A stretch of 44,292 bases of DNA from contig JANPFS010000166.1 in the NCBI GenBank assembly GCA_031423535.1, forward strand, positions 1 to 44,292. The letters are read 5' to 3'. A program made the position numbers and the translations under genes. This DNA is from Blastocatellia bacterium (GTDB lineage Bacteria; Acidobacteriota; Blastocatellia; RBC074). A model generated the notes under the pieces. That model saw only the letters and a program-made list of their open reading frames with translations. It searched no databases and was not told the origin of the DNA. This document shows, piece after piece, positions 1,910 to 41,881 of this stretch. Within the stretch, counting starts at the first letter, position 1; the number at the start of each line of letters is the position of its first letter.

Positions 1910-2827
1910 ATGGAAACAGCAATAATCTCAGTTATTAACTTAAAAGGTGGAAGTGGGAAGACGACTTCGACGGCAAACTTAGCGGCTGCGCTAGGACTGA
2001 TGGGTCACAGTGTTATGGTTGTTGATGCTGACCCGCTGGGTAATTTAACGACAAATATTGCTAAGAGCTACCCTGCTGAGCGAAATCTGCTTCGAGCGCT
2101 TGAAGAGAAATTGCCATTAGAAGCTGTAATGGTGGAGACGAATTGTGAGAACGTGTGGTTGGTACCAGGTTCGTCAGGGATCGCATCCTTTGCTAAACTA
2201 CAGGAGCCAGAGCCAAATCGTCATCGGCTTTTTGCGGACTTGTTTAATACGGATATGATACAAAAATTCAGATTCCTGATAATTGATAACTCTATTAGCC
2301 AGAATGCACTGTTGGCCACTGCAATTTTGGCAAGTGATTACTTCTTAGTACCACTGGAGGCTAAAGTTTTCTCAAAGAATGGTCTCAGAGATGTTTTTGG
2401 GTATGCTTACGGGCTGGAGCCAGAATCGCTAGAGTGCCTTGGGTGCTTTGTTGCTAATTTCATGAGTGTGCCCGCACAGGAAAAAATGAGAGAGCAAATC
2501 CAATATATTACGAAGTCTGCTGATGTGCCGTTTTTGGGAGTGCCGGTTCCCTTTTCTCGTTTTGTTGAGACTTCCGTGCAGAACGGGACGAGCTTGTTTG
2601 GGGTGGTAGGGCGACGGCGGACGGACACAGACAGTGTCACACCCAGTTTACGTGAGCAGTACGGTCATAACCCTGCTGCGGCTGCTTATTTGATTTTAGC
2701 AGAAGATGTTGCTAAGCGAAGTAAGGGAAAGCTGCGTGGGTATAAACCGTTGCGCAATAATGGAGCAAGTTCGCTGAAAATGTTGAATTTAGCAATGGAA
2801 GATTTTGGTGAAGACAGTGAGATATAA
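1910..2827 (+). CDS. parA: ParA/Soj-family partition ATPase
   Basis: Deviant Walker A in VINLKGGSGKTTSTANLAAAL, followed by VVDADPLGNLT. Immediately followed by a ParB-like gene. Confidence 0.9.
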   Translation: METAIISVINLKGGSGKTTSTANLAAALGLMGHSVMVVDADPLGNLTTNIAKSYPAERNLLRALEEKLPLEAVMVETNCENVWLVPGSSGIASFAKLQEPEPNRHRLFADLFNTDMIQKFRFLIIDNSISQNALLATAILASDYFLVPLEAKVFSKNGLRDVFGYAYGLEPESLECLGCFVANFMSVPAQEKMREQIQYITKSADVPFLGVPVPFSRFVETSVQNGTSLFGVVGRRRTDTDSVTPSLREQYGHNPAAAAYLILAEDVAKRSKGKLRGYKPLRNNGASSLKMLNLAMEDFGEDSEI

Positions 2828-2829
2828 AT

Positions 2830-3783
2830 ATGAAAGCTAATGTAATTGTTGATAAATTAAAAGAAGAAAGTGAAAAGGACTTAACCGTACTTCTAAGGGC
2901 GAAGTCAAAAAAACAGACAGTGGAACCTGTAGAAATTGTTACCTCTACACGGTTAGAGAAACGGACAAAGCTCGAAATCGCCTTGGCTCACAACAGACCT
3001 GTTGTTATTGAACTGGCTGATATGGTGGTAAAAGGGAATGTCCGCGAAGAAGTGGATGTAAATGGTAAAGATTTTCGTAATTTAGTGAATTCAATAAAGG
3101 AAAATGGACTGGAACAGTCACTCCTCCTGGCATATAAATCTGTCGGAGAGTCCGACTATGAGTTAATTGTTGCTTGTGGGCAACGGCGTAAACTGGCTTT
3201 AGAGGAATTAGGCGTTGAAAAGGCTCCCTGTCTTTTGAAGCGATATACTACCGATGTGGCAATGATCTCGTGGGGGTTGGAGGAAAACTTAAACCGCAAA
3301 GATCTTCACTTTTTAGATTTAGGGAAAGCGTATGCTGATTTGAATACAGCGGGTCTGAGTCAGATGGAGATTGCTATGAGGTGGGAAGATGTCACTGGTC
3401 ATGGCACAAACATGATTTCACGAGCAATCACATCTTCAAAATTCCCTGAACATGTAAAAAGGAAAATAAGAGATAATCCTCGAATTTTTAAGGTTTCGGT
3501 TATCTGTAATCAACTGGCAGCGAATCGTGGAACTAAATATGCTGATGATATGGATTTGGAGGCAGCCGTAAATGATTTGATCCGTGGTGCAGGGCGAGTG
3601 ATACCGCAAACGGATAAGAAATCTATAGATCAAGTCGAAACTGCCATGAATCTTCCAGCGGGATGGTTAAAAGGGAAGGCTAAAGGAGATAGGAGTTCTG
3701 GCAGAGTTTTGATCAAATGGAAGTCGAAAACTGAATTCGAGGAGCTACTTAGAATTTTGAACGGGCCAAAATCGCAATCTTAA
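2830..3783 (+). CDS. parB: ParB-like partition / nuclease-domain protein
   Basis: ParB N-terminal box YELIVACGQRRKLALEELG (GxRR). Starts 2 bp after the parA stop. Confidence 0.8.
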   Translation: MKANVIVDKLKEESEKDLTVLLRAKSKKQTVEPVEIVTSTRLEKRTKLEIALAHNRPVVIELADMVVKGNVREEVDVNGKDFRNLVNSIKENGLEQSLLLAYKSVGESDYELIVACGQRRKLALEELGVEKAPCLLKRYTTDVAMISWGLEENLNRKDLHFLDLGKAYADLNTAGLSQMEIAMRWEDVTGHGTNMISRAITSSKFPEHVKRKIRDNPRIFKVSVICNQLAANRGTKYADDMDLEAAVNDLIRGAGRVIPQTDKKSIDQVETAMNLPAGWLKGKAKGDRSSGRVLIKWKSKTEFEELLRILNGPKSQS

Positions 3784-5783: not shown

Positions 5784-6020
5784 ATGAATAGAGCAGATGA
5801 TTGGATGACACCATCAGGCATCGCAGAGTTCTCCTATTGCGAAAAAGCCTGGGATTTGAAGCGATGTGGGCAAGCAGCGCCTGTCACGAAGGAAATGAAA
5901 CGCGGCATTCAGAAACACCAACAGAAGGCGATAGCAGTGGGAGCCTCTTCGATGCTGTTTGGGGCGGCAGCAATCGCCGGATTGATATTATTGGCGGTAT
6001 TTTTTCTGAGGTCACTATGA
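5784..6020 (+). CDS. Cas4-like nuclease, N-terminal piece (first cluster Cys plus a TM helix)
   Basis: SGIAEFSYCEKAW carries the N-terminal Cys expected for a Cas4/DUF83 4Fe-4S cluster. It ends in the hydrophobic stretch MLFGAAAIAGLILLAVFFL. The TGA stop at 6018-6020 overlaps the ATG at 6017-6019 of the next piece. Confidence 0.6.
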   Translation: MNRADDWMTPSGIAEFSYCEKAWDLKRCGQAAPVTKEMKRGIQKHQQKAIAVGASSMLFGAAAIAGLILLAVFFLRSL

Positions 6021-6508
6021 TCTGGCTATTTTGTCTTGTGATCCTGGCGCTCATCGTGGCTTTGTTGCTCCGCTGGAACTCCGGCGTTGGATTTTGGGTC
6101 ACTTATGCAGACCGAGGCCGCAATGAGGAACTATTCGTGTCCAGAGCGCACCGTCTACGCGGCAAGCCGGACTTTGTCGAACGTAGCAGCAGTGGGTTTG
6201 TGCCAGTTGAGTACAAATCCCATCGCGGAAAACTTCATCAAGCCTTTCGCAACCACGTCATTCAGGTTTTGGCCTACTGCTTTTTGCTCGAAGATGTTTA
6301 CGGCCCAGGCAAAGTGACCAAAGGACGTGTTGTTTATGATGAAGCTTCTTTCGATGTGCCATTTCGCGATAAAGAGCGCGTTGAAATTGCGCGCATTATG
6401 AGCCGAATGAGAATGATGGTGCGAGGACGCGCGAAACGAACGCATACCGAAGCAGGGAAGTGCCGGAGCTGCGCCTTCCAGAAACAATGTGACCAAAGTT
6501 TAGTATGA
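6017..6508 (+). CDS. Cas4-like PD-(D/E)XK nuclease core (RecB-fold, DUF83-type), C-terminal piece
   Basis: Starts with the TM helix MIWLFCLVILALIVALLL. Followed by LRGKPDFV (motif II Asp), VPVEYKS (ExK), IQVLAY (QxxxY) and C-terminal CRSCAFQKQC (CX2CX5C). The track ORF starts at 5801, but its upstream part overlaps the first piece in another frame. Confidence 0.75.
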   Translation: MIWLFCLVILALIVALLLRWNSGVGFWVTYADRGRNEELFVSRAHRLRGKPDFVERSSSGFVPVEYKSHRGKLHQAFRNHVIQVLAYCFLLEDVYGPGKVTKGRVVYDEASFDVPFRDKERVEIARIMSRMRMMVRGRAKRTHTEAGKCRSCAFQKQCDQSLV

Positions 6509-15790: not shown

Positions 15791-15971
15791 AAATGTCTGT
15801 GTCCTTTGTAAGTGGTGCGGGGACGTTGCATCACGAATCTCAAAGTGTCGCTTGGACGAGGATTAGCTAGTGCAAAACTCGTGCCGCTGCTGTGACAATG
15901 TTGCAAAGATGAAAAATAATTCCTCAAACGGGCGAGTTTAGCGTGTCTTGGAACAAGGGTTGCTTGGCAGG

Positions 15972-16751
15972 ATGGCTATGAATCGAAGCTGCATATTTGT
16001 CTTATTGGTTGGTTTGTTGATCGCCCCTGTACGGGCGCAGCAGGCGATCCAGGTAAGCTGGCGCGCCGTGCAACGCGGTACCGTTTATGAACCGCGCATG
16101 ATAGAGGAAGCGGCAAAGGCCAAGCTTGACCCGCGCTGGATTTGGATTGTGGGCTATCTCGAATCGAAATTTATACCGAGCGCGCGTTCCAACGCAAATG
16201 CTCATGGAATGATGCAGTTTATCCCGGCGACCGCTGCTCGCTTTGGCATCACCAATGTCTACGATCCCCATCAGTCAATCATCGGCGCGGCGAAGTATCT
16301 GGGATTCCTGAGCCGTCGCTATAACGGCAACGTCTATTCAGTTCTCGCTGGCTATAATGCTGGCGAAGGTGCTGTTGACGCATACCTGTCGGGCGAATCC
16401 AAAACATTGTCCAACGGGAAAGTCATCAATCCACGCAAAATTAAAACAGCGCACGGCGTGCCGCCTTATGCCGAAACGATGAATTATGTGAATGAGGGCG
16501 CACGCCTACTCTCCATGATGCCCGGACTCGAAGAGCGAGAGGCCGGCGCACCCGTCATTGCGATACAAGCAAATGGGCAGATACTGCCAGAGGAAATCAA
16601 AGCCGAAGTCGTGGAAATCCGCCCCTCCAGAGCGATACTCTTTGAGTATGAAGCGAGTACCGAACCGACTAAACCGTTGGCAGAGGAAGAAAAAGCCATT
16701 GCGGCAGGAGGGAATCCCCAGCCGAAAACGAAATCTGTCATTTTTCAATAA
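15972..16751 (+). CDS. lytic transglycosylase (SLT domain, VirB1-like)
   Basis: SLT motifs GYLESKF (catalytic Glu), AHGMMQFIPATA and LAGYNAGEGAV. Signal peptide MAMNRSCIFVLLVGLLIAPVRAQ. Start moved from the TTG at 15948 to the ATG at 15972. Confidence 0.85.
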   Translation: MAMNRSCIFVLLVGLLIAPVRAQQAIQVSWRAVQRGTVYEPRMIEEAAKAKLDPRWIWIVGYLESKFIPSARSNANAHGMMQFIPATAARFGITNVYDPHQSIIGAAKYLGFLSRRYNGNVYSVLAGYNAGEGAVDAYLSGESKTLSNGKVINPRKIKTAHGVPPYAETMNYVNEGARLLSMMPGLEEREAGAPVIAIQANGQILPEEIKAEVVEIRPSRAILFEYEASTEPTKPLAEEEKAIAAGGNPQPKTKSVIFQ

Positions 16752-22569: not shown

Positions 22570-24945
22570 ATGAAGGATTGGTTTGGCCGCCTGTTAGTAA
22601 GGAACTCCCTGATGAAAAACCTGTTTGAGATTATCAAGTTTGTCCTGTCCTTGTATCGGAAGTACAAGTCGCCGGTCACCGTTGCCAACCAACTCGATTC
22701 GGTCTATCCGATTCCACGCCCAACGGATACGCCTTTCCTGCCGCCCTATCACGCGATCCAGGCGCTCATCAGCATTGGCACCAGAATGTTTACCATTGGG
22801 GTGGCGAGTTGCTTGGGCGTGCTGGGTTGGTGTGGCGCGTTTTACTTTTTACGACTGGACTTTTTTGGTGTGGCAGGCGTGGTGCTGGTGTTTGTGTTGC
22901 TTGGCACCGTGTTGATTGCCTACGCCGAAGCCAAGCAATTGCCGCTGATTTACGAGCGCACACAACAACGCGTGTCACAAGGCACAGCCTTCTGGATGGA
23001 ACCAGAAATGATGGAGGATTCCGGCATCCTGTTTGATAGTGATGACGAGGGGTTGGACGCTGTGAATCATTTGGTGGCAAATTTCTTCCGTTTCTTTGGC
23101 GTGAAAATGGAACGGAAAGCCAAAGATAAGGTTCTGCCGCCGGATGAGGGATTTCTGGAAATTGGGCGGCACGGCTCGAAAACGATTGGCCTCCCCTGGA
23201 ATTTATGTTCCCGCCATTTGGTGTTGTTTGGGAAAACTGGCTCCGGCAAATCGAAGACGTATTTCCTCAATATGATTCGGCGCTGGGCGGGAAAGGGAAG
23301 TGTGATTGCGCTTGATCCCAAAGGCGAACTGATGTGGCAAACCGGCAGCTCGTTCAAGAAAGTCTTTCGGTTCAATCTGGTAGACCCGCTGGATAGCGAT
23401 CACTGGAACTTCATTCCCGATTGCCAGGATTCGGTAGTGGCTGCGGATGTCACTTCCATCATGTTACAGCTTGACCCGACGGCGAAAAAGGGTGGCGGGA
23501 TGGATCCATTCTGGGAAAACGCAGAAGCGCTCTGCTTGTGGTCGCTCCTGATGTTTCTCTCGACGCGCACCAATCCTGACGGTTCAGGGATGATCCCTGC
23601 CGATATTTCGCGCTTCATTTCTTCGCCGGATGACTTTGCCACTCCCGAACAGATCGAAGAAGCACGCCGAATCGCTGATACCTCACCCAGCAAAAGCTTC
23701 AATGTCTCGCTCATCAATATTCTGTTGTTGTTTGTGAGAAGTGGCTTGGGGAAGGAAATCAAGAACGCCTGGGGGATGTTCACGACCATCAAGCAGGAAG
23801 GCCACGCCAACGTGTTGCTGGGGTTGGGCGTCAAGGTGCGCAGCTTTACGGTTCCCACCGCGCGTGATTTAGCACAGCCCATTGGTAATAAAGACAATGC
23901 GCGCTGGATTACCTTCAAGGATTTGCGCCAACCGGGAACTGCCATCTTCCTCATCATCAACGAAGGCGATACCGGCACGTATCAAGCTTTGCTCGCTACC
24001 TTTATGGGAATGGCAACTCAGGCCTTGCGCAAGTCGGGTATGCGCGACGACGAAGCGAAAGTCCTCTGTTTGTTTGATGAAGCCGGCAACGTCCCGATCT
24101 GGGGCTTGGGTGAAATGCTCGGCCTCGGTCGTGGTCGTAAAATGGCGGTGGTGTGTTGCTACCAGACCGTCAATCAACTGTTCAAGCAGTACGGCAGTGA
24201 TGGTGGTAATGCCATCCTTGAATTGTTTACGAATTACATCTTTCTGCCCGGTGCGACCAATCAAACGGCGGAACTGGCCACAAAGCTCCTGGACAAGGTC
24301 ACCACTTGGTCACACACCGCTGTGGATGTGGTCGGTGGTTCCGGGGGTGACAATGAGCGCTCGTCTGAAATTGGGCGTGAGCTGATGACCACAGGAGAAG
24401 TTCGCCAACTGGTAGAATATCGGCAGGCCCTGGCAATTGTCGCAACCTTTCCTCCGATTAAGATGGCCTTCCCGAAATTTGCCTTTGATCCCAAGCGTCC
24501 GAAGTTTGAGATCAAAACTGAGCCGCGCGCCGCCCTGCCAGCTACATCCATAAGCATCGAAGAAGATGTCTATCCTGAACAAACGGAAGTTGCGTCGGAT
24601 GCTGTTGCGCAGTCAATTCTCCCACTCGCAAGTGTTCCAGTCGCGACTGTTCCACTCGCGACTGTTCCAGACGCGTCTGTTCCAGCCGTTGCTGTGTCTG
24701 TCGTAACCGAACCTCCTGCTCCGGTTGTTCCGGTGGTGGTTCCAATGGTACCCGCATCATCTTCTACACCGGTTGATTATTTTGACCAGCTTGGTGGAAA
24801 GGTTGCTGCTTCAGCAACAACCTTATCTAGTGACGATAGCTCTTCGGGGTCGCGGGATCGGCAACGCGGGCGTCTGATCAAAAAAACTCCCCAATATGAC
24901 AACATTGATCAGGAAATGATCGACCGGGACCCGACGTTGTTGTAA
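22570..24945 (+). CDS. traG: type IV coupling protein (VirD4/TraG family)
   Basis: N-terminal TM helices. Walker A in LVLFGKTGSGKSKTYFLN and Walker B in VLCLFDEAGNVP. The C-terminal Pro/Val-rich tail contains the CAGTCGCGACTG motif. Confidence 0.85.
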   Translation: MKDWFGRLLVRNSLMKNLFEIIKFVLSLYRKYKSPVTVANQLDSVYPIPRPTDTPFLPPYHAIQALISIGTRMFTIGVASCLGVLGWCGAFYFLRLDFFGVAGVVLVFVLLGTVLIAYAEAKQLPLIYERTQQRVSQGTAFWMEPEMMEDSGILFDSDDEGLDAVNHLVANFFRFFGVKMERKAKDKVLPPDEGFLEIGRHGSKTIGLPWNLCSRHLVLFGKTGSGKSKTYFLNMIRRWAGKGSVIALDPKGELMWQTGSSFKKVFRFNLVDPLDSDHWNFIPDCQDSVVAADVTSIMLQLDPTAKKGGGMDPFWENAEALCLWSLLMFLSTRTNPDGSGMIPADISRFISSPDDFATPEQIEEARRIADTSPSKSFNVSLINILLLFVRSGLGKEIKNAWGMFTTIKQEGHANVLLGLGVKVRSFTVPTARDLAQPIGNKDNARWITFKDLRQPGTAIFLIINEGDTGTYQALLATFMGMATQALRKSGMRDDEAKVLCLFDEAGNVPIWGLGEMLGLGRGRKMAVVCCYQTVNQLFKQYGSDGGNAILELFTNYIFLPGATNQTAELATKLLDKVTTWSHTAVDVVGGSGGDNERSSEIGRELMTTGEVRQLVEYRQALAIVATFPPIKMAFPKFAFDPKRPKFEIKTEPRAALPATSISIEEDVYPEQTEVASDAVAQSILPLASVPVATVPLATVPDASVPAVAVSVVTEPPAPVVPVVVPMVPASSSTPVDYFDQLGGKVAASATTLSSDDSSSGSRDRQRGRLIKKTPQYDNIDQEMIDRDPTLL

Positions 24946-25674: not shown

Positions 25675-26892
25675 TTATGAAGCTGCCGAAATTGTAATCT
25701 CAAAAGGAATTTTCTCGCTGAATGGAATCGGCGAGTTTTGACCTGAATATCCCAAGTGGGATGCAATCGGTGATAAAGCGTGCTGTGAAATCCAGTCAAT
25801 CACAGGGACGCAGACGGCATCTGCAAATCCAGTCATGGCTTCATTCCGTGACCTGCGAATGCTGAAGTCTGGTACGCCTTGCAGACGGGCATATTCTACC
25901 GGCGACATCCATCGCATCTTTATATTTCCGCCGTCTATAATCACAACAATTTGTTTTCCGCTACCGCCTTTGGCTGTTCGTAAGCAGCCTGCCAGCCCGT
26001 CAAATCTTATTTCCGACCTGGTTTGCCCCTCACGAATTCGCCGAAAGATCGTCCCTACCCATAATTGTTTTGTGGCAAGCATTTTTTCAACTCGCTGATG
26101 GTGCAATTCACTCATCCTATCAAAATGCTTCTTAACTTCAGCCTCTGACCACCAATCTTGATTCGCGCCAAGGTCAATTACCGACTCTAAGTTTCTTTGT
26201 TCTGATAGTGGTTCTGGCAGGTTTAATGCTATCCATCCAGTAGGAAGTTTGATGGTGTGAAATGCCTCAAAAAGGCGAGGCGTACAGGTTTTTTTTCTCG
26301 CGTTAATACGCTCGCCCCATAGTTGTTGGCGACCTTCAAGAATCGCACTGGGGGGAATTCCTTCTTTCAAAATCCCCAGGATGAAGAGACGAGGACGGCT
26401 TTGGGGGGTGAAATATTTTGCGTCAACAATAAATGAGTCGAGAAAATAACCGAGCCTTGAAACGGCTAGACAGGTTTCTTCAAAGTCTTTACCCTTGTTT
26501 CCAGTTAATAACCCCGGGACATTTTCCAGTATCACTATGGGAGGCATTTTATTCTCCAGGTTTAGCCTTCTTAAAACCTCAAGAAAGCCGAACAAGGTAG
26601 AAGAATGTTCGCCCTTCAAGCCTCTCATATGGCCTGCAAGGGACAAGTCAGTACAAGGAAATGATGCTGTAGCCAGTAAGGCGCGTTGTTTGATACGCTC
26701 TAAAATCCTGTTCGTTTGCCAAATGTCTTCGAGATGAAAGTAGGTGGCATCGGAGAATTCATCCAGGTACATAGCCTGTTTTTTCTCTGAGATGTCATTG
26801 GCATAAAGACATGACCACTCAGACAAACGAAGCCCGTGATGAACCAATCCGATTCCGGCAAAAAACTCCAAAAATGTTTTCTCAGTACCCAT
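25675..26892 (-). CDS. DNA (cytosine-5) methyltransferase
   Basis: C5-MTase motifs are present: I FLEFFAGIGL, IV SFPCTDLSLAG, VI ILENVPGL, VIII TPQSRPRLFILG. The C-terminal motif is GFADAVCVPV. Sampled lines count about 38-45% GC, against about 63% in the adjacent iscB. Confidence 0.9.
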   Translation of the reverse strand: MGTEKTFLEFFAGIGLVHHGLRLSEWSCLYANDISEKKQAMYLDEFSDATYFHLEDIWQTNRILERIKQRALLATASFPCTDLSLAGHMRGLKGEHSSTLFGFLEVLRRLNLENKMPPIVILENVPGLLTGNKGKDFEETCLAVSRLGYFLDSFIVDAKYFTPQSRPRLFILGILKEGIPPSAILEGRQQLWGERINARKKTCTPRLFEAFHTIKLPTGWIALNLPEPLSEQRNLESVIDLGANQDWWSEAEVKKHFDRMSELHHQRVEKMLATKQLWVGTIFRRIREGQTRSEIRFDGLAGCLRTAKGGSGKQIVVIIDGGNIKMRWMSPVEYARLQGVPDFSIRRSRNEAMTGFADAVCVPVIDWISQHALSPIASHLGYSGQNSPIPFSEKIPFEITISAAS

Positions 26893-26997
26893 TCACGGCC
26901 TTCTTGAGTTTTAAGAACTGTTTATCAAAAACCGCAAAAGAAAACTCTCTTCTTCAGGGGAGAGATGAATTTTGCGCGCACCTCCGGTGCGAAATTA

Positions 26998-28317
26998 TTA
27001 GTTCAGTAAAGAGCGGATGCCTTTTGCGTAGCGATAGAGTTGTAATTGCTTGGCAGGCGCATGAATCTTGCCTGCCAGTAAAACGGTCTTGCCGTAACTG
27101 TGCGTCCCAACGACGACCTGCTTTTGCCCCTTGAAGATTACGACATCGCCCGGTTGAATGGGGTAGCGCTGTTTGCGACGAGAGATTACGCCTTTGCGTG
27201 TTTTGTGTCCCCTGTATTGGCGCAAGTCCTCGCTATTGAGGTTGTGATTGCGGGTGTGTCGTCCACTGGAAAGTTTCTGCCCCGTCGCCGATTTTCCGGT
27301 TCGCGTGTCGAGATACTTCGCGTCCCTGAAGGTGGCGAGCGAGCGGTTGTTCCGTCGTCGCTGTTGGTAGTAGATGGTTGGCACGCGTGGCTGTCCAGCT
27401 TTCCCCGTGATCGCAAATGCGTCGTTCGCCTCCGTTCTGGGTAAGCCCAGCGTGAGGCGGTTTCGTTTGGTCTGAAAGCCAAACACTTCGGTCGCACCGG
27501 TAGCTGTTACCAGTTTGCGGCGTATCGTGGTCATGAAAGTTTCGGCGCGGAAACTCTTGACCGTTGGCTCCCACCCGAACAAGCAGCCGCCCGGTTGATG
27601 ATTGGCCGGTCGGTGACAGTCGGTGCAAAGCGTGACGAGATTGCCGGGGCGGTCGCTTCTGTCCTGCTTCCAGAAGCCCAGATGGTGAACATGTAGGATG
27701 AGCGGCAGCTTTTTGTTCTTACAATCAGGGTTTTGGCACTGGCCGCGATCCCGAAACAAAACGTACTCGCGCAGGTTCTCAAACGAAAACTGTTCGCCTT
27801 GTTGATACCCGACTCCATTGACGTCGGGGGACTTGAGTTGCTGAATATCAAACGAAGCTGTCTGAATGTTCTTGTGGGTGATCGGCAGAATCTTCTCGAC
27901 CTGCCCAATGATCCGCAAATGCGAATCGTGCTTGTGTTGCAGCGAAGGAGCCAGTTGTTCCGCCCGTTTGCCCGTCTCGGAATGACCGGGTTGGCGATAG
28001 CGGGTCTTGTTGCCGCGTCGGGTGGTCCGGTACATCTGGCGTGAAGTGATGCGCTCGCTCACATCAGGATCAAGTGCGACCTCGGCAGAGAAGACTTCGG
28101 CTTGTTCGGTTTGGGCCGAAAGGCCGATGCTCGTATAGCCGCTCTTGACGTTGAGCGTGATAGGTTGCGTATAAGACGTGGCCTCATACGTGAGTTGGAT
28201 GGTGAAAGGTTTGGTTTGCAGAACGCGCGCGCGCCCGGCTCGTAATTGATGGCGCACCCAGCCATGCCGTGTGGTCGGCATGAGAGGCGAGCCATCCTGG
28301 TTCAGGACATAAATCAT
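26998..28317 (-). CDS. iscB: IscB (OMEGA-family RNA-guided HNH/RuvC protein) with substituted RuvC catalytic positions
   Basis: The expected IscB segments are all present. PLMP domain: MIYVLNQDGSPLMPTTRHGWVRHQLRAGRARVLQTKPFTIQLTY. Arg-rich bridge: RRGNKTRYRQP...LAPSLQHK. HNH block: CQNPDC...LHVHHL...GNLVTLCTDCH. RuvC-III-like: LGLPRTEANDAFAI. C-terminal tail: IQPGDVVIFKGQKQVVVGTHSYGKTVLLAG. Confidence 0.85.
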   Translation of the reverse strand: MIYVLNQDGSPLMPTTRHGWVRHQLRAGRARVLQTKPFTIQLTYEATSYTQPITLNVKSGYTSIGLSAQTEQAEVFSAEVALDPDVSERITSRQMYRTTRRGNKTRYRQPGHSETGKRAEQLAPSLQHKHDSHLRIIGQVEKILPITHKNIQTASFDIQQLKSPDVNGVGYQQGEQFSFENLREYVLFRDRGQCQNPDCKNKKLPLILHVHHLGFWKQDRSDRPGNLVTLCTDCHRPANHQPGGCLFGWEPTVKSFRAETFMTTIRRKLVTATGATEVFGFQTKRNRLTLGLPRTEANDAFAITGKAGQPRVPTIYYQQRRRNNRSLATFRDAKYLDTRTGKSATGQKLSSGRHTRNHNLNSEDLRQYRGHKTRKGVISRRKQRYPIQPGDVVIFKGQKQVVVGTHSYGKTVLLAGKIHAPAKQLQLYRYAKGIRSLLN

Positions 28318-28619
28318 AAAAATACCGAGAAGACGAATCTTCTAAAGCAGGTTGAGTTGTCTCAACCAGTGGGTCCACTTCGCCCGGTTCGTTCTGCTTG
28401 TGATTGCCGTAGCCACTTCGCCTACCCAAAGCGATGTTTAGGATACGACCGAGCCAACGTCGCTGGTGGAGCACGACGTTACTCGATGACAGGAAGAACG
28501 TTGTTGTGGTCATAGCGGCCGGTGAGGCCTGCCACAAAGGCTAATCAAGTGGGCTTGATCTATACCAAGCCTCGTCCTTTAGGACGGGGTTCTTGACTTT
28601 AGTTTCGTGAACCTTGCCA
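28318..28619 (-). ncRNA. omega-RNA-like structured leader upstream of iscB
   Basis: 302-nt non-coding gap directly 5-prime of iscB, where IscB omega RNAs are encoded. At least six local hairpins: 28328-28343, 28351-28366, 28456-28480, 28504-28537, 28544-28559 and 28570-28589. Ends are not mapped. Confidence 0.6.
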
Positions 28620-28730
28620 AAGAGAAAGGCCGCTCACTTGAGCGGCCTTTCTTCTTGGTGGGATGCGGTAAAACTACCGGTCATACATGTCATCGTAATG
28701 ACTCGCTTGCGCGACTGCTGCGGCAATCTC
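28620..28730. repeat. diverged direct repeat, copy B (terminator plus the true 3-prime end of the 1253-aa gene)
   Basis: See copy A. Homology starts exactly at the outer edge of the omega-RNA-like region. Confidence 0.75.
28625..28650 (-). terminator. intrinsic terminator of the 1253-aa gene
   Basis: 11-bp stem AAAGGCCGCTC / GAGCGGCCTTT with a 4-nt loop. On the minus strand it is followed by CTCTTTGG. Lies 24 nt after the stop codon. Confidence 0.7.
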
Positions 28731-31700
28731 CATCCGTTCCGGTTCAGCCGCTGGCTCCCGCTCTTCGGCTTTGCTCTCTCGTTCTTCCGTGACCCCGCGT
28801 TCCTCTTTGGAATCATCCGAGAAACGATCCTCCCGTAAGGCCGGCTGATTGGTCAGGTTGTGATCCGTCACTTCAGCAATCTGCGCCGGTCGTTCCGTCT
28901 CCACTCGCTCCGTCGAACGCTCCTGACTGTGATCGCGTTCGGTGGCCTGACCGATCAGCGTATCCAGCTTTTCAAACCCGCCATAAAACTTCTCGCGCCC
29001 GACCAGCTCGGAGTGCTGGTATGCCTGCAACATCTCGCGTTCTTGCGGTGTCGCCTGCTGAAGTGCCTGCGCTTGGAATTCCCGATTGTCGGTGAGTCCG
29101 CGACTCTCAGCGACGGCACTCGTCCGGGCGGTATCTGCATGAGTGAATGCCTCACGCAGATATTCCTTACTGCCTTCGGGGAGTGCCATCTGATCCAGTT
29201 TGCCATTGAACTCGCGGCTGTCCACTTTTCCCGCAATGTGATCCTGAATCATCGGCACGAGCGCGTCTTTGTTGGCCGTGATCGCTTCCTTGTAGCCAGG
29301 CTCCTGCATCCCGTTCTTCCAGGTATTTGTCCATTCGGTGCGGGTGGCAATCGCTCCATTCGCTTGCCCACGCTCTTCCGCAACCCGCTCGACAATCTCG
29401 CTTTTGTGTCGGTTGAGCGCGTCCCGCGCATTCATCGCATCCTGCTGATATTCCTTCATTGTGTCTACTTGTCGGAACACTTGCTGTGCTGCCGGGTCTT
29501 TCTCCGCCAAGTTGTCGCCGCGCGCTTCTGCTGTATCTCGGCGTTGATGAATGGTGTCAGGCACGGTGGTTGGCCAGGTTTCCCGCGAGATTTCTCTGGC
29601 CAGGAATTCCTTGCCTTGGGCGTTGTCGCGAACGGTCACTTTCCCGTCTTCGATGATGCGAACCTGGGCGACATAATCAGCTTTGGGATCGGCTTTCGCA
29701 TCTGTGACGGATTGTGCGTATGTCTGGTAACTCTGACTCTTGACGGGCACTGCGCCATACAACCGCTCACCGGACTCTCGTCGCATGTGCAGGTCTTCGG
29801 TGATTTCTTTGGCGACAGCCTTGACGTACAACTGTTCGTGGTATGTGAGCGCAGGCTTGCCGTCCGCCTTGCTTAATGACTCTTCCAGCCGGACTCCTAA
29901 CGTTTGGTGATCGCGCGATTCATCCAGCCTTGCGACCGCTTCGCGCGCGTTCGGTGAGGCTTTATGGGGCGCTGCCAGCAACGCCTCGGCTCGCATCACG
30001 TTCACTTCCTTGTAGATAAAATCCTTCTCCGCTGGATTGAGCTTGACCACGTTCTCGCGCACTTGCCATGCGACTTCTGTCGGACTCAAGGGTTTGTTGA
30101 GATCTGTGACTGGATTCATAATTACCGAAAAACGGCTCAGCTTTCCAGTATCCGGCTCTCCATTGCGATCCCGATTTTCGTCCAGTGCGCTCATGATTTT
30201 CTGGACAGGTTCAGACCGTTCTGTTTTCCCTTCGAGCAGATTGTTGACCATCTCTCGCTTCGTCGCATGGGTCATCAGACCGCTGTGCAGCGCCTGTGTC
30301 ATCTCGGGCGTAAATTCGTGTGTATGCGGCCCTGGCAGACTCACTAACGCCCGTTGCTCGGTACTGAGTTTCTGATGCGCAGATTCTTCGCCGTCTCGCT
30401 GTTTTGCTGCCAGCTTCGTGTTGAAATCCAGGATTATTTTTGCGCTTTCTGCGACCCCTTCTGGTGTTTTCTGTTCGGTCATTCGCTCCAGCGCACGATG
30501 GAAGACGGGCGATTGATTGCTGTTTCGCACGTATAAATCTTCCCGCAACACCGTACTCGCGAATTTCTCGGTGAATTGTGGCAAGGTTTGATATTCCGCC
30601 TTGATGTCTGCTCGATCTGCACCATTCGCCTGCGCGCGATCAATGGCCTGCAGGTGATCGCCGTATTTGTGCCCATTCTCTTTCGCCAGAAATGCCTCCA
30701 GTCCCGGATTGTCCTTGATCCTGAGCGCGCGCTCGGCACCGATCTGATTGTAGTCCTGCACATAGCCTTCCACCTGGGATTGTCCGGCGCGAGAGGTCTC
30801 CCATTGGGTGTTGGGAGCCAGCAACAATTCCTTGTCCCGCGTGCTAATTTGCGGATTCATCATCACTCGTTCGGCAAACGCGAACTCTCGCTCGGCCCCA
30901 ATCGCACTCGTACCCATCTTGACGCGATCTGCGTACATTTCCCGAAACTGAGTATGTTCTCCTGCCGGCGCTGTGACTCGTTCAGCAAATTCTGCGGCTC
31001 GCTCTAAGTAGGTTGAAGATGCTCGTGTGTTTAGGTTCGGGCTGTCTGCCATCGCTCGCAATTGTCCGCTATCCAATCCCGCCGCGCGCGCTTCTGTTGC
31101 TACATTGCGATACTCGGCTTCGCCCATCGCTTTCAGGTGGTCGGTGAAATCTACGCCGCTTTTGCTTGTGAGGTAGGCTGAATGCTCTAACAATGTGGCC
31201 GCGCTCTTTGGCGCTAACGATGACCCCGCAATTTCTTGTCCTAATCGTTCAGAATCTGCCGGTGAGAGTTGCCCTTGCGCATACTGGTCATAGCGCTCGG
31301 AGAACTGCTGCCCTTGCTCCGACGCTAAAATGTTTTTTACTTCCACCTGTTGATCCAGATACCGTCCCGCAAACTGCTGCACGTTTCTGGCTGCGGCTGT
31401 TAGTTCGGCGACCGACATCCCCGCTTGCAATGCCTCCGTCATCCGTGGCATCGCAGTTCCAACCAAATACTTGTCGGTCAGAATCTGGTCGTTCCCCGGC
31501 AAGCTGGGCTGCTGATCCAATCCCCCAATCCGAATCGAACTGGTATTGAAGATCGCCCCGTCGCGCGCCAAATCTAAATCCTGTTCTTCATACCGCTCGT
31601 CGGCCATCTCTAACATCGTGTTGTCAACGATTTCAAATTCATCCAGATTACTGCTCGCACGTTCGGTCTCATTGGTAAAGATTTCTCGTTCCTCGCCCTC

Positions 31701-32435
31701 CACGAGATCACGGTCTTCGGCATCAATCCGCTCAAATTCCCGATCCACTTCGCCCGTCGCTTCCAAAATGTACTCGCTACTTCCACTCGCCCCGCCGCGC
31801 TCCATGAGGTCATCCTTCGAGAAATCAACCTCGCGTAACTGCTCAGCAATCGCACTCATCTTGTCCAGCGCTTCCCGCGTGGCCGTCATTCGCTCAGGAT
31901 CAGTTCGGAAGCCACCATTCTCCGTAAAATTGATGTCCTTCAGATAACTATCTGCAATTTCCAAGCGCGCTGTCGTATCCGCATTGCGTCCAGCCAACGT
32001 TTCGATGTGCTCGTGAAATTCACGCGCCATCTCACGCGTGGGAAGATGCTCAATCAAATAGGCAAACGTTGTCTTCTGTGGCTCACTCTGATCCGGCGAC
32101 GTCCGACTGAATTCCTCCGTCGGAATTACTGCGACCTCTCGACTCGCCGTTGCGCCATGTTCATACATCTGCGCCAGCGTCGTGTGACCGTCCGACCGCA
32201 ATTTGCTCGACCATTCGGCCCGATCGTACCCTTCCGGTGGATTGAACACCGTGTTAAGGTCGTCGCGGTTCATCAACCGCTGCTCATCCGTTGTTCCCAC
32301 TGGCCGCGCGGCAATCTCCACCATTACCGCTTTCCCATACGGACTCTTGTTCTCGTCCAGCAATTGCTGCACGGATTTCTCGTCGTAGGCGTTGGGGTCG
32401 GGAAGGATTAAAAAAGGATTGAATTCTTTGGCCAT
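28674..32435 (-). CDS. large acidic, probably helical protein of unknown function (1253 aa)
   Basis: Uninterrupted 3.76-kb ORF. Rich in E, D, A, R and Q. No nucleotide-binding, relaxase (HxH) or nuclease motif recognised by eye. Confidence 0.7.
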   Translation of the reverse strand: MAKEFNPFLILPDPNAYDEKSVQQLLDENKSPYGKAVMVEIAARPVGTTDEQRLMNRDDLNTVFNPPEGYDRAEWSSKLRSDGHTTLAQMYEHGATASREVAVIPTEEFSRTSPDQSEPQKTTFAYLIEHLPTREMAREFHEHIETLAGRNADTTARLEIADSYLKDINFTENGGFRTDPERMTATREALDKMSAIAEQLREVDFSKDDLMERGGASGSSEYILEATGEVDREFERIDAEDRDLVEGEEREIFTNETERASSNLDEFEIVDNTMLEMADERYEEQDLDLARDGAIFNTSSIRIGGLDQQPSLPGNDQILTDKYLVGTAMPRMTEALQAGMSVAELTAAARNVQQFAGRYLDQQVEVKNILASEQGQQFSERYDQYAQGQLSPADSERLGQEIAGSSLAPKSAATLLEHSAYLTSKSGVDFTDHLKAMGEAEYRNVATEARAAGLDSGQLRAMADSPNLNTRASSTYLERAAEFAERVTAPAGEHTQFREMYADRVKMGTSAIGAEREFAFAERVMMNPQISTRDKELLLAPNTQWETSRAGQSQVEGYVQDYNQIGAERALRIKDNPGLEAFLAKENGHKYGDHLQAIDRAQANGADRADIKAEYQTLPQFTEKFASTVLREDLYVRNSNQSPVFHRALERMTEQKTPEGVAESAKIILDFNTKLAAKQRDGEESAHQKLSTEQRALVSLPGPHTHEFTPEMTQALHSGLMTHATKREMVNNLLEGKTERSEPVQKIMSALDENRDRNGEPDTGKLSRFSVIMNPVTDLNKPLSPTEVAWQVRENVVKLNPAEKDFIYKEVNVMRAEALLAAPHKASPNAREAVARLDESRDHQTLGVRLEESLSKADGKPALTYHEQLYVKAVAKEITEDLHMRRESGERLYGAVPVKSQSYQTYAQSVTDAKADPKADYVAQVRIIEDGKVTVRDNAQGKEFLAREISRETWPTTVPDTIHQRRDTAEARGDNLAEKDPAAQQVFRQVDTMKEYQQDAMNARDALNRHKSEIVERVAEERGQANGAIATRTEWTNTWKNGMQEPGYKEAITANKDALVPMIQDHIAGKVDSREFNGKLDQMALPEGSKEYLREAFTHADTARTSAVAESRGLTDNREFQAQALQQATPQEREMLQAYQHSELVGREKFYGGFEKLDTLIGQATERDHSQERSTERVETERPAQIAEVTDHNLTNQPALREDRFSDDSKEERGVTEERESKAEEREPAAEPERMEIAAAVAQASHYDDMYDR

Positions 32436-34003: not shown

Positions 34004-34308
34004 AGTGCGACCGTGCGCCGAAATAACTTGACCGCCTTTATTGGCGTCATCTCCTCCGCCCCTGCTCGTAACGCCAACTCCCGCTTATTTCGTGTCAACT
34101 GGTAATACGTCGTCCATCCCACCACGCGCGCCCATTCCAGTTTCATCCCCAATGTTGCGGTAGCAAACTGGTGCAGTTCTGCTTCACTATCGGCTGTCAA
34201 ATGACAACTATCGCCGTAATGCCAATCCTGGCTTGGTTTCGTTCTAGTTAATTGATCCACGAAGATCATCGGTCGGTCGCTTCTTTCAGTGATAATTTTC
34301 AAAGGCAA
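33979..34308 (-). CDS. DUF4031-like protein
   Basis: WHYGDSCHLTADSEAELHQFATATLGMKLEW...YYQLTRNKRELALRAGA matches my memory of the DUF4031 pattern (W.H...D..eELh.fA..lGl...w....hYDl....r..Al..GA). Confidence 0.5.
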   Translation of the reverse strand: MPLKIITERSDRPMIFVDQLTRTKPSQDWHYGDSCHLTADSEAELHQFATATLGMKLEWARVVGWTTYYQLTRNKRELALRAGAEEMTPIKAVKLFRRTVALQPVLSSE

Positions 34309-35464
34309 ATTCTGCCTGGGCTACTGGTGGCACGTTGACGATGGTTGGTCGCTTTTGTGCCTCCAGGCGCTGCCTCTCCACATACCGCTCCATTATTTCT
34401 TTCACGGTCTGGTATCTGAATTCGATTTGTAACAATCGCCCAATTTGTTGTCGGGCCTGCACCAATTGCTCGCACTGCTCTCGTGTCGGTAACGCCGTGC
34501 TTGTTCCTTTTTGGAAACGTAGTTCGGGCGCAAGTGTCGCTTCAATGGCTTTGCGTTGGATGGCCTTTTGCTTCGCTTCGATCAAGCGGGTGCGCATCTC
34601 TGGTGTCAGCCGTTCCGGTTCTACGTCGCCTAACCACCGATTGGGCTGAAACGAAAACGTAGACTCCACCTCCAATGCCACAATCCGCCGATAAGCACTG
34701 TCGTTCCCCTCGTCTTTCAAACTGGCTTGCAAATCGTGCAAGCTGCTCAACACGCAAAACGAACAACTCACGCGCGAGTTGCCGTTCTTCGTATACGCCC
34801 GATGCAACGGAAAGTTGTGTTGCTCGTGCAGGCTCATCACTTCATGCACTTGCCATTCGAGAATTGGAAACCAATCACGCCCACTTGTCCCGTCCGCGCG
34901 CTTCAGTTTGAGGTTTTCTTGTGAGATCGGCTTTTTCGCGCGACTCGCCGATTCGTTCCGCCGCAATCCCACTACATTGAGAATTTGTTGTCCCGGAAAC
35001 CGTCGCGTAAGCTCCTGCGTGATCGGCGCAACCTTTAACTCCGACGTGCAAAACCTCCACTGTGCGCTGCTGAATGGACTCAACAACGTGATCGTTTCCA
35101 GATGATGATAGCGCGTTAGATTATTGTGCCATCGTTGCTCCCACCGCTCCAACATATCGCCTTGCTTACGACGCACCACAATCAATTTCATCCCGACACG
35201 TTCCCCTAATCTACGACATTGTAGTAGGGAATCACTATGTTCGATTTGACCGAGATGGGCGTGAATCAACACTTGCGTCCCTTGATGCCCGACATCTTTT
35301 AGAAAATTATTGGTGAGAATTGCTGCTGCATCCGAGTCTTTCCCGCCGCTTACGCCTATCGCAACTACACAGTTACTCGTAATCATCTGTGCCGTTGGTT
35401 CGTCAATTGTCAGCCGATGCGTTTCAGCAAGCTGAATGATCTTTGCAATTTTGTCTGATGGCAT
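34286..35464 (-). CDS. PAPS-reductase-like / DndC-like PP-loop ATPase
   Basis: PP-loop in VVAIGVSGGKDSDAAAIL, plus VGLRRNESASRAKKP. Start trimmed to Met24 of the track ORF (ATG 35464). Confidence 0.7.
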   Translation of the reverse strand: MPSDKIAKIIQLAETHRLTIDEPTAQMITSNCVVAIGVSGGKDSDAAAILTNNFLKDVGHQGTQVLIHAHLGQIEHSDSLLQCRRLGERVGMKLIVVRRKQGDMLERWEQRWHNNLTRYHHLETITLLSPFSSAQWRFCTSELKVAPITQELTRRFPGQQILNVVGLRRNESASRAKKPISQENLKLKRADGTSGRDWFPILEWQVHEVMSLHEQHNFPLHRAYTKNGNSRVSCSFCVLSSLHDLQASLKDEGNDSAYRRIVALEVESTFSFQPNRWLGDVEPERLTPEMRTRLIEAKQKAIQRKAIEATLAPELRFQKGTSTALPTREQCEQLVQARQQIGRLLQIEFRYQTVKEIMERYVERQRLEAQKRPTIVNVPPVAQAEFAFENYH

Positions 35465-35513
35465 GGTGTGAAGTTTGGAAGGCAGGCGAGGTCTTGTGTA
35501 GAGAATGGCATTG

Positions 35514-36122
35514 CTAGAACCGTTCGCTATCAAATTGCGCGACCGTCATCATCTTGGCGAAGTATTGTTCGCCTACTTTCTTACAGGCCAGATACACGCC
35601 CTGGCCTTCAGCCGTGTGCGTATACGGCTCACCGCTCAGAAACCCGTTGGTACGATAGCGTTTTGGTGGGACGCATCCCAGGTAATGCTCGTATTGTTCT
35701 TGCCCAACCTCGCGCCACATCGGCACGAACTGATTCAAATCGAACACGACCACCGGCGAAATAAAATCCAACACCGACGGATGATTGCACTGCCTGATGC
35801 AGTGATAGGTGGTCTCGCCGTTTTCGTATCGTTGCACGACGATACTCGCCGGACTCGCCAGAAACCCTTTCAGTAAGTCTGACGTATTCGCGTGAATCCC
35901 AATCCGCTCATCCCCGCTCGTAATCATCCCGCCATTCAATTTATATGCGAACCACGTCCCGTGACGGTCAATCAAGATCGTGTGCGAGGCTTGCCCGGTT
36001 GTCATTCCATAGCGTTCTTGCTGAATGCCGTAGCTCTCAACTTTCGCGTCGTGTTCGGTTATGAATTGCTGCGGATTGAGAAAGCTGTCGGGTGAGAGTG
36101 CTTGAATTTCTTTGTCGTCCAT
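35514..36122 (-). CDS. hypothetical protein (202 aa)
   Basis: ORF track, trimmed to Met24 (ATG 36122). Shares a 20-nt leader with the preceding gene. Confidence 0.5.
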   Translation of the reverse strand: MDDKEIQALSPDSFLNPQQFITEHDAKVESYGIQQERYGMTTGQASHTILIDRHGTWFAYKLNGGMITSGDERIGIHANTSDLLKGFLASPASIVVQRYENGETTYHCIRQCNHPSVLDFISPVVVFDLNQFVPMWREVGQEQYEHYLGCVPPKRYRTNGFLSGEPYTHTAEGQGVYLACKKVGEQYFAKMMTVAQFDSERF

Positions 36123-41359: not shown

Positions 41360-41881
41360 TTACGTTTCCCACCGCACTGGCGCTGTCTCGTAGGACAAAT
41401 ACAGCGGGTGACTGGGATTCCCATCGTTGTTCATTTTCAAGGTGTGCAAGATGATTTGTTCCTGCCTGAGTATTCCAGCAATTTGCGTTCCGCGCTCTTT
41501 CAGCTTGCCATGTGACCCCCACGCGCAAATTACTGTCGCCGATTCATGACACGCTTCGACGATCGCTTTGTCGTTCCCCTTGCCAATCGGATCAGGATGC
41601 GTGTACAGCGCTTGTGGGTTGGTTGACCGTAATGCAAATAAGTTGACGATCTGCACTCCGCCATACCCGCCCCGTCGCGCCCGCTGCTCGCACCGCTCCA
41701 CCGTCGGATCATTCTTCGCTTCATCTGCCGTCGAAGGATTCAGCATCACGAAACAAAGGAATGGCTTCTTGCTGTCCCACTGCCGCCATAATCGAAACCG
41801 ATACCCCTCGCAATTGCTAAAGATCGCCGTGCTTTTCGTTTCGCTCAGTAACGTAGAGTGTGTGAATGTTTTGATAATCAT
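41360..41881 (-). CDS. DUF1643-family protein
   Basis: YRFRLWRQW...FLCFVMLNPSTADEAKNDPTVERC...GGYGGVQIVNLFALRSTNP...ICAWGSHG...NDGNPSHPLY matches the DUF1643 pattern as I remember it. Confidence 0.65.
   Translation of the reverse strand: MIIKTFTHSTLLSETKSTAIFSNCEGYRFRLWRQWDSKKPFLCFVMLNPSTADEAKNDPTVERCEQRARRGGYGGVQIVNLFALRSTNPQALYTHPDPIGKGNDKAIVEACHESATVICAWGSHGKLKERGTQIAGILRQEQIILHTLKMNNDGNPSHPLYLSYETAPVRWET

Follow-up and report, generated by a model that had tools for sequence, protein, structure and literature searches.

An IscB homologue with replaced RuvC catalytic residues and a conserved HNH site on a predicted mobile OMEGA element: a candidate natural target-strand nickase

What remains of an RNA-guided nuclease when the catalytic residues of its RuvC domain are replaced and those of its HNH domain are kept? 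This question is raised by an iscB gene on contig JANPFS010000166.1 (44,292 nt; hereafter the window, meaning the whole stretch of DNA that was analysed). Cas9 descends from the compact IscB, which is now the subject of engineering towards a nickase for base editing. A first-pass annotation of the window described the gene product as an IscB with three of its four RuvC catalytic positions replaced and an intact HNH motif, acting either as an HNH-only nickase or as a programmable DNA binder. [quoted passage not shown] The gene and the domain order of its product are as follows.

26998-28317, minus strand: iscB gene, an uninterrupted open reading frame (ORF) of 439 aa
Product, from the N-terminus: PLMP domain, RuvC-I (Asp replaced by K58), bridge helix, RuvC-II (Glu replaced by Q152), intact HNH
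Product, C-terminal half: RuvC-III (E296 in place of His; D299 kept), then the C-terminal region for interaction with the target-adjacent motif (TAM)

The ORF, its coordinates, codons and motifs are all as first described, and profile alignments of the kind proposed at that stage as a check support the family assignment. Pfam RRXRR covers residues 2-174 (E=1.4e-49), the Pfam model for HNH gives 24.9 bits (cut-off 21.4), and the NCBIfam equivalog NF040563 (guided_IscB) reaches 262.9 bits with a cut-off of 175. The protein displays the layout expected of an IscB, with an N-terminal PLMP motif (SPLMPT, residues 10-15), the RRXRR/bridge-helix region, and a split RuvC domain with an inserted HNH, at a score above the curated family threshold. 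A phmmer search against PDB sequences matched OgeuIscB (7utn/7xht) and other solved IscBs (E=4.5e-32). The pairing with OgeuIscB sets ITLNVKSGYTSIGLS opposite LVLGIDPGRTNIGMS, which puts K58 on the Asp of LGIDPG, and NIQTASFD opposite VVLELNRF, which puts Q152 on the RuvC-II Glu. Foldseek hits for an AlphaFold2 model (predicted local distance difference test score 79.7, predicted template modelling score 0.73) include IscB-omegaRNA-DNA complexes (E=2.8e-26) and IsrB (E=6e-15), and in the model K58 stands at the end of strand beta-1, the place of the canonical Asp. The protein is an IscB homologue by descent, from which the double-strand nuclease activity of the family would not be expected.

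How exceptional the substitutions are becomes clearer upon comparison with 120 homologues drawn from a 5.8-billion-protein collection. Their four RuvC catalytic columns hold D in 115, E in 114, H in 115 and D in 118 sequences, and the D/E/H/D reading holds in ~96% of 117 close homologues. At the same columns the window protein has K58 (AAG, 28144-28146), Q152 (CAG, 27862-27864), E296 (GAG, 27430-27432) and D299 (GAC), and the D-E-H-D tetrad is therefore broken at three of four positions, while the HNH site is complete, in agreement with the first description. Within the HNH domain, C194, C199, H211, H212, N226, C231 and C234 are invariant in the 120 homologues and H235 is present in 119, and all of these catalytic and zinc residues (CxxxxC...HH...N...CxxCH) are found in the window protein. 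The family has 142 columns that are at least 90% conserved; the window protein departs from 15 of them, including three of the four RuvC catalytic columns (hypergeometric p=0.0036). Changed conserved columns number 10/49 in the RuvC segments and 0/30 in HNH (Fisher p=0.011). The concentration of changes on RuvC exceeds chance.

The substitutions are shared, in part, with two relatives. P0002, encoded at locus L001 on a 2.2-kb ENA contig, is 82% identical to the window protein and reads K-Q-D-D at the RuvC columns; P0003, encoded at locus L002 on a 5.2-kb Logan contig, is 68% identical and reads N-E-H-D. The HNH columns are canonical in both. Within this clade the pairwise identity is 68-82%, while everything else in the protein collection reaches 55% at most; scans of GTDB species genomes, JGI metagenome contigs and IMG/VR, and of PLSDB by tblastn, returned no further member, with nothing closer than 57% identity. 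L001, an independent assembly, shares the AAG codon of K58 but encodes Q152 by CAA. A simple read error, which the first-pass annotation had already dismissed, is ruled out by the relatives, the selection analysis and the omegaRNA data. The linker between RuvC-II and HNH in P0002 (residues ~163-181; L001:950-1010) harbors a replaced patch that is unrelated at the DNA level too and introduces no frameshift.

The codons allow for an ordering of these losses. At RuvC-I, the canonical Asp is encoded by GAC, the Asn of L002 by AAC, and the Lys of the window copy and L001 by AAG, a path of one step at a time. At RuvC-III, the His codons CAT/CAC lead to the Asp codon GAC of L001 and from there to the Glu codon GAG of the window copy. 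All three members have in common a set of departures at family-conserved columns beside the RuvC motifs (G56N, L83D, T278V, Y279F, A304T and G306K), indicating that the RuvC-I site was already altered in their common ancestor. The losses of Glu and His came later, on the branch leading to the window copy and L001.

Selection after these losses can be followed directly, because K58 and Q152 are present in L001 as well as in the window copy, and the differences between the two therefore accrued after inactivation. By the Nei-Gojobori method, the ratio of non-synonymous to synonymous rates (dN/dS, or omega) for this pair is 0.187 over the whole gene at dS=0.61 (131 synonymous and 107 non-synonymous differences; bootstrap 95% confidence interval (CI) 0.137-0.251). 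The RuvC segments are the most constrained (0.08), followed by HNH (0.145) and the C-terminal region (0.26). Comparisons with L002 give dN/dS of ~0.09 with dS saturated, and the ORF is intact at all three clade loci. An ordinary decaying pseudogene is thus unlikely: the first-pass annotation had proposed a search for orthologues as a test of this point, and the substitutions turn out to be inherited in a small clade, with different codons and under purifying selection. Devoid of its catalytic residues, the RuvC fold is presumably preserved for its structural role, as a core on which omegaRNA and heteroduplex are held.

The gene does not stand alone at the locus, as the following features accompany it.

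28369-28597, minus strand: omegaRNA scaffold (Rfam HEARO, RF02033), 88.6 bits with a gathering score of 83, full length (model positions 1-211)
28598-28613, minus strand: guide position GGTTCACGAAACTAAA, 16 nt directly 5' of the scaffold, flank-derived
26933-26976, minus strand: two-part imperfect hairpin just 3' of the stop codon, with 17-nt arms, kept in the clade

The omegaRNA, which the first-pass annotation does not mention, lies 52 nt upstream of the iscB ATG on the same strand, as expected for a cognate omegaRNA. Full-length HEARO is also present in the other two clade copies (85.6 and 92.7 bits), and across the three clade loci 13 of the 58 predicted pairs are maintained despite changes on both sides. 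Homology of the three loci starts exactly at the first base of the scaffold (GTCAAG, window 28597). The preceding 16-20 nt are unrelated from locus to locus, being GGTTCACGAAACTAAA in the window and ending in AGCGAAAGGACAGCA in L001 and in CCGACATTCAGGCATTTT in L002; a guide length of 16 nt is taken from known IscB guides. No second match to the window guide exists in the 44-kb window at up to three mismatches, the only site being its own locus. The flanking genes of the three loci are likewise unrelated, with an AraC-like regulator and a sigma-54 activator flanking L002. The three copies therefore occupy different genomic sites, share homology that stops at defined ends, and have guides derived from their flanks.

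At the other end, both stems of the 3' hairpin covary in single-sequence folds. The outer stem reads CGCAAAA/TTTTGCG in the window and TCCAAA/TTTGGA in L001 and L002, and for the inner stem the window has CTCTC/GAGAG, L002 has CTGCCG/CGGCAG and L001 has CCTCTCC/GGGGGGG. The hairpin is probably a subterminal end structure of the IS200/IS605 type, or else a terminator. Homology among the three loci fades ~8-10 nt beyond it, and the element probably ends there, near 26922-26925. Just past the hairpin each copy displays an A-rich stretch (TAAACA in the window, 26922-26932, minus strand; GAAAAA at L001:1865-1885; AAAACA at L002:2445-2465). Known IscB TAMs are purine-rich, which the stretch recalls, and it could be a putative TAM of an NAAANA-like form.

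The best explanation for these features, on the sequences compared, is that ~26925-28597 (~1.67 kb) constitutes a non-autonomous OMEGA element of the IS200/IS605 type, consisting of omegaRNA, iscB and 3' hairpin and lacking TnpA. As flanks and guide-position sequences are unrelated in the three copies, they resemble a transposed insertion sequence (IS) rather than a fixed regulator. The element would have been inserted at three different sites since the loss of the RuvC-I Asp, which is not the pattern of a domesticated regulator.

How could such an element function with a single nuclease site? We propose that the lineage first lost the RuvC-I Asp, passing from GAC through AAC (Asn) to AAG (Lys), and then exchanged the RuvC-II Glu for Gln and the RuvC-III His for Asp and subsequently Glu. 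Purifying selection would have continued to act on the RuvC fold, on the omegaRNA and on the complete HNH site. The ribonucleoprotein (RNP) would form an R-loop at TAM-adjacent DNA matching the flank-derived guide, with HNH cutting the target strand only. A nick at an IS-free homologous site could then promote recombinational re-copying of the element without breaking the replicon, which may be of importance when the replicon is a plasmid. Family membership, the substitutions and their inheritance, selection, the intact omegaRNA and the differing insertion contexts are observed; that RuvC catalysis has been lost, that HNH still nicks and that the element homes in this way are predictions.

Several published observations agree with this proposal. 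IscB with D61A, the position equivalent to K58, is an efficient nickase, and the D61A;H248A double mutant is dead (PMC11666462). IscB no longer cleaves the genome lethally once HNH and/or RuvC carry point mutations (10.1101/2023.03.14.532601). IsrB, found on elements of this kind too, has RuvC only and naturally nicks the non-target strand (PMC9581776). The nuclease D61A variant, the mutation effects and the IsrB precedent together make HNH-only target-strand nicking the best-supported activity, and the half of the initial proposal that saw an inactive RuvC and an HNH-only nickase accordingly stands as the likely one. On plasmids, moreover, a gene-drive action of IS605 nucleases is known (PMC11870625).

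Three other readings of the locus compete with an HNH-only nickase. The RNP might be a nuclease-silent, RNA-guided DNA binder, serving as a repressor or roadblock like TldR or recruiting another factor. This would be in line with the replaced RuvC residues and with the TnpB and Cas12 lineages of dead RuvC that act as RNA-guided regulators (10.1101/2023.11.30.569447; PMC10691335); moreover, HNH activation in IscB and Cas9 needs conformational coupling, which could be lost. A pure binder, however, has no need of the HNH catalytic and zinc residues, nor of the 30/30 conserved HNH columns, that are kept in all three members. Context and guide-position sequence differ from copy to copy, homology ends at the scaffold boundary as in a transposed IS, and the window guide has no second match within the window. 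TldRs are recognised by a fixed locus with a guide for a neighbouring promoter and by the lack of any remaining nuclease site; the three members here have different neighbours and guides, and the HNH of the window protein is fully conserved. We therefore regard a binder, the other half of the initial proposal, as unlikely at this locus. Less probable still is a non-functional relic, i.e., a dead IS copy on its way to decay whose constraint was inherited from a recently active master copy. Around 10% of IscBs have RuvC substitutions, many of them singletons beside canonical neighbours, as in sporadic inactivation; no TnpA is encoded nearby, and the clade is very rare, with three sequences in the 5.8-billion-protein collection. 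Yet the omega of 0.19 (upper CI 0.25) accrued after inactivation, both compared copies having K58 and Q152, and the ORFs are intact at three loci. Compensatory changes in the omegaRNA and three separate insertion sites after a shared RuvC-I loss also speak against a relic.

The remaining alternative is a rewired, active RuvC, in which D83, E296 and D299 rebuild a metal-binding site and both strands are cut. The first-pass annotation had listed E71, E74, D83 and D85 as acids that could overturn its conclusion. E74 is present in 218/225 IscB sequences and E79 in 181/225, and E71 and D85 are likewise common in canonical IscBs, so none of these can be compensating. D83 is different: at column 83 each of the 220 other sequences has Leu or Arg, and Asp is confined to the focal clade, having come in on the branch on which D58 was lost. 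The secondary structure of the AlphaFold2 model places D83 in the loop that connects strand beta-3 with the bridge helix. The change of H296 to Asp or Glu would keep the carboxylate count near three, and the RuvC segments are the most constrained of the gene (omega 0.08), although such constraint is expected anyway of a structural core for omegaRNA and heteroduplex. The RuvC-I Asp is the most conserved catalytic residue of the RNase H-like superfamily, and a Lys at this beta-1 position should repel Mg2+. Rearranged and probably active RuvC sites have been described for TnpB, but these move the RuvC-II Glu and keep the RuvC-I Asp (PMC10691335), whereas here the beta-1 Asp is a Lys. In addition, the homologues P0254, P0077 and P0378 reach K/Q/D states without D83, which better fits a dead pocket plugged by Lys. 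Taken together, a rewired site is very improbable, and D83 is perhaps a charge-swapped partner of K58.

Returning to the HNH-only nickase, several points weigh against it. The activity of HNH is predicted from conserved residues alone, and we know of no IscB for which a nick has been shown to suffice for retention of the element. The clade-unique acid D83 and the new acid E296 at the former His leave a small chance of a remodelled metal site. The focal clade has three known members only, all from metagenome assemblies, and in one of them (L001) an 18-residue patch is replaced over the otherwise invariant Y-Q-x-G-E-Q motif. The TAM and the exact 3' end are not fixed by three clade sequences. 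No empty site was found, as relatives of the neighbouring C5 methyltransferase gene were at most 71% identical and a 24-kb megablast against PLSDB gave no match. Upstream of the omegaRNA we detected no sigma-70-type promoter, a consensus that may not be that of the possibly acidobacterial host. Finally, none of the window ORFs that were compared with Pfam was a Y1 TnpA, and no TnpA partner is known.

A further question is whether RuvC loss of this kind is peculiar to the window. The first-pass annotation could point to no RuvC-dead IscB lineage; one had been described, however, and roughly 10% of sampled IscBs carry such changes. Altae-Tran et al. 2023 (PMC10910872) reported an IscB with inactivated RuvC and active HNH, suggested to be a nickase, beside an inactivated Cas12 and a helix-turn-helix (HTH) protein, together with a comparable, RuvC-inactive type II-C Cas9 from a phage. 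One or more RuvC catalytic substitutions occur in 8/117 close homologues outside the clade, most of them singletons whose nearest neighbours are canonical, and in 11/114 representatives of 50%-identity clusters. For Y1-associated TnpBs, ~15% have been reported with such RuvC changes (PMC10691335). An apparent asymmetry of substitution, RuvC over HNH, among close homologues (11/468 vs 1/351 cells, p=0.017) was rejected, since it disappears among the 114 cluster representatives at 50% identity (11 RuvC-substituted vs 15 with a non-HNH triad).

The particular states of the focal clade recur elsewhere. P0254 reads K-Q-D-D and P0247 reads N-E-H-D. Both arose by convergence: they have canonical nearest neighbours (48-54% identical), are only 41-45% identical to the focal clade and lack its signature residues. 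P0077 reads K-E-R-E and P0378 reads K-E-S-Y, so that Asp has changed to Lys at RuvC-I on at least four occasions, once in the focal clade and once each in P0254, P0077 and P0378.

A second RuvC-substituted lineage was observed at 11 metagenome loci (L044, L045, L047, L049-L056; for example L050:6100-9400 on contig OLOU01000007.1). Its IscB is ~40% identical to that of the window, reads G-K-C-D at the RuvC columns and has the last HNH His replaced by Asn, with the gene under purifying selection (omega 0.09-0.15). Its flanks are syntenic (UvrD helicase, DUF1064 and sigma factor genes) and resemble those of a phage or mobile genetic element, indicating a fixed locus, unlike the focal clade. Two HEARO omegaRNA copies lie upstream of iscB. 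Between omegaRNA and gene there is a 36-nt repeat with ~66 nt spacing, in 3-6 copies depending on the strain; its core matches exactly, as the reverse complement, a 14-mer within the remodelled omegaRNA 5' end. The arrangement resembles a CRISPR-like mini-array whose anti-repeat is of the tracrRNA style or, alternatively, a guide whose promoter-proximal targets are repeated. Cas12-like neighbours were not found at these loci, and identity with the published system of Cas12, IscB and HTH protein is thus unsupported.

The surroundings of the element in the window bear on how it is carried. The neighbouring gene and the backbone features are as follows.

28674-32435, minus strand: gene for a 1253-aa protein, highly acidic and without Pfam match, directly upstream of the element
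28617-28658: terminator hairpin of that upstream gene, abutting the omegaRNA guide position
1910-3783: ParA/ParB
5801-6508: Cas4-like PD-(D/E)XK nuclease
15948-16751: SLT transglycosylase
22570-24945: VirD4/TraG-type (type IV) coupling protein
25675-26892: C5 cytosine methyltransferase
34286-35533: protein with a 3'-phosphoadenosine-5'-phosphosulfate (PAPS) reductase domain
41360-41881: DUF1643 protein

The position of the terminator hairpin indicates that the element inserted right after the terminator of the upstream gene. The C5 cytosine methyltransferase is the downstream neighbour of iscB, and its best relatives, 71% identical, come from metagenome-assembled genomes of Acidobacteria. Most other ORFs of the window have no Pfam match; no tRNA was found in the window, and megablast of 24 kb of it against PLSDB returned no match. 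The gene content fits a plasmid or an integrative conjugative element of an uncultured, possibly acidobacterial host. Carriage on a conjugative backbone had been put forward as a novelty, but IscB genes are annotated on 32 PLSDB plasmids.

Measured against what is already in print, the finding is incremental: a RuvC-inactive IscB has been published, and about one in ten IscB lineages is changed in this way. What is new is an IS-borne variant of a state noted before but never characterised, and the main additions are purifying selection after RuvC loss, continued transposition, and convergent patterns of substitution. We would go one step further only tentatively, with the doubts prevailing: a still-mobile IscB lineage may have switched from homing by double-strand breaks to HNH-only nicking of the target strand, as a mirror image of IsrB, by a route that several independent lineages take (Asp to Lys, Glu to Gln, His to Asp or Glu). 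If this is true, the recurrence would imply that selection promotes nickase IscBs as a strategy, perhaps one at an advantage on plasmids, where breakage of the replicon is costly, and that ready-made natural nickase scaffolds exist. A natural lineage with dead RuvC and live HNH that selection has maintained would show that an OMEGA element can be sustained by nicks alone, complementing IsrB on the other strand, and would offer a naturally optimised nickase scaffold with a Lys in the old metal site. The convergent K/Q/D pattern in unrelated IscBs suggests a preferred route to RuvC inactivation that could be exploited in design.

Comparison with known systems helps to place the window protein. 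It shares with canonical IscB (OgeuIscB; PDB 7utn/7xht/8csz) the domain order, the upstream HEARO-type omegaRNA and the compact non-autonomous layout. It differs by K58, Q152 and E296, and double-strand cleavage is therefore not expected. The IscB of Altae-Tran et al. has the same predicted state of dead RuvC and live HNH and the same proposed nickase activity. As judged from its description, that protein is part of a conserved, CRISPR-linked multi-gene module, whereas the window IscB is a stand-alone IS copy with a flank-derived guide, found in three contexts unrelated to one another; no Cas12 or HTH partner was detected among its neighbours.

Engineered nIscB, used in miniature base editors, is an HNH-dependent nickase with the same RuvC-I Asp disabled through D61A (PMC11666462). 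There a single Ala was introduced in the laboratory, while the window protein carries a natural combination of Lys, Gln and Glu that is fixed and maintained by selection. TldRs, the TnpB-like repressors, are also OMEGA effectors with naturally replaced RuvC residues that are kept by selection. They have no second nuclease domain, occupy fixed loci and use guides matching specific promoters (10.1101/2023.11.30.569447), in contrast to the complete HNH and the transposed-IS behavior seen here. IsrB (PDB 8dmb) is likewise transposon-borne, omegaRNA-guided and single-strand-cutting, is structurally similar to the window model, and shows that nicking alone is compatible with the persistence of such elements (PMC9581776). 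The two differ in the strand: IsrB has no HNH and nicks the non-target strand with its RuvC, whereas the window IscB keeps its HNH and is predicted to nick the target strand.

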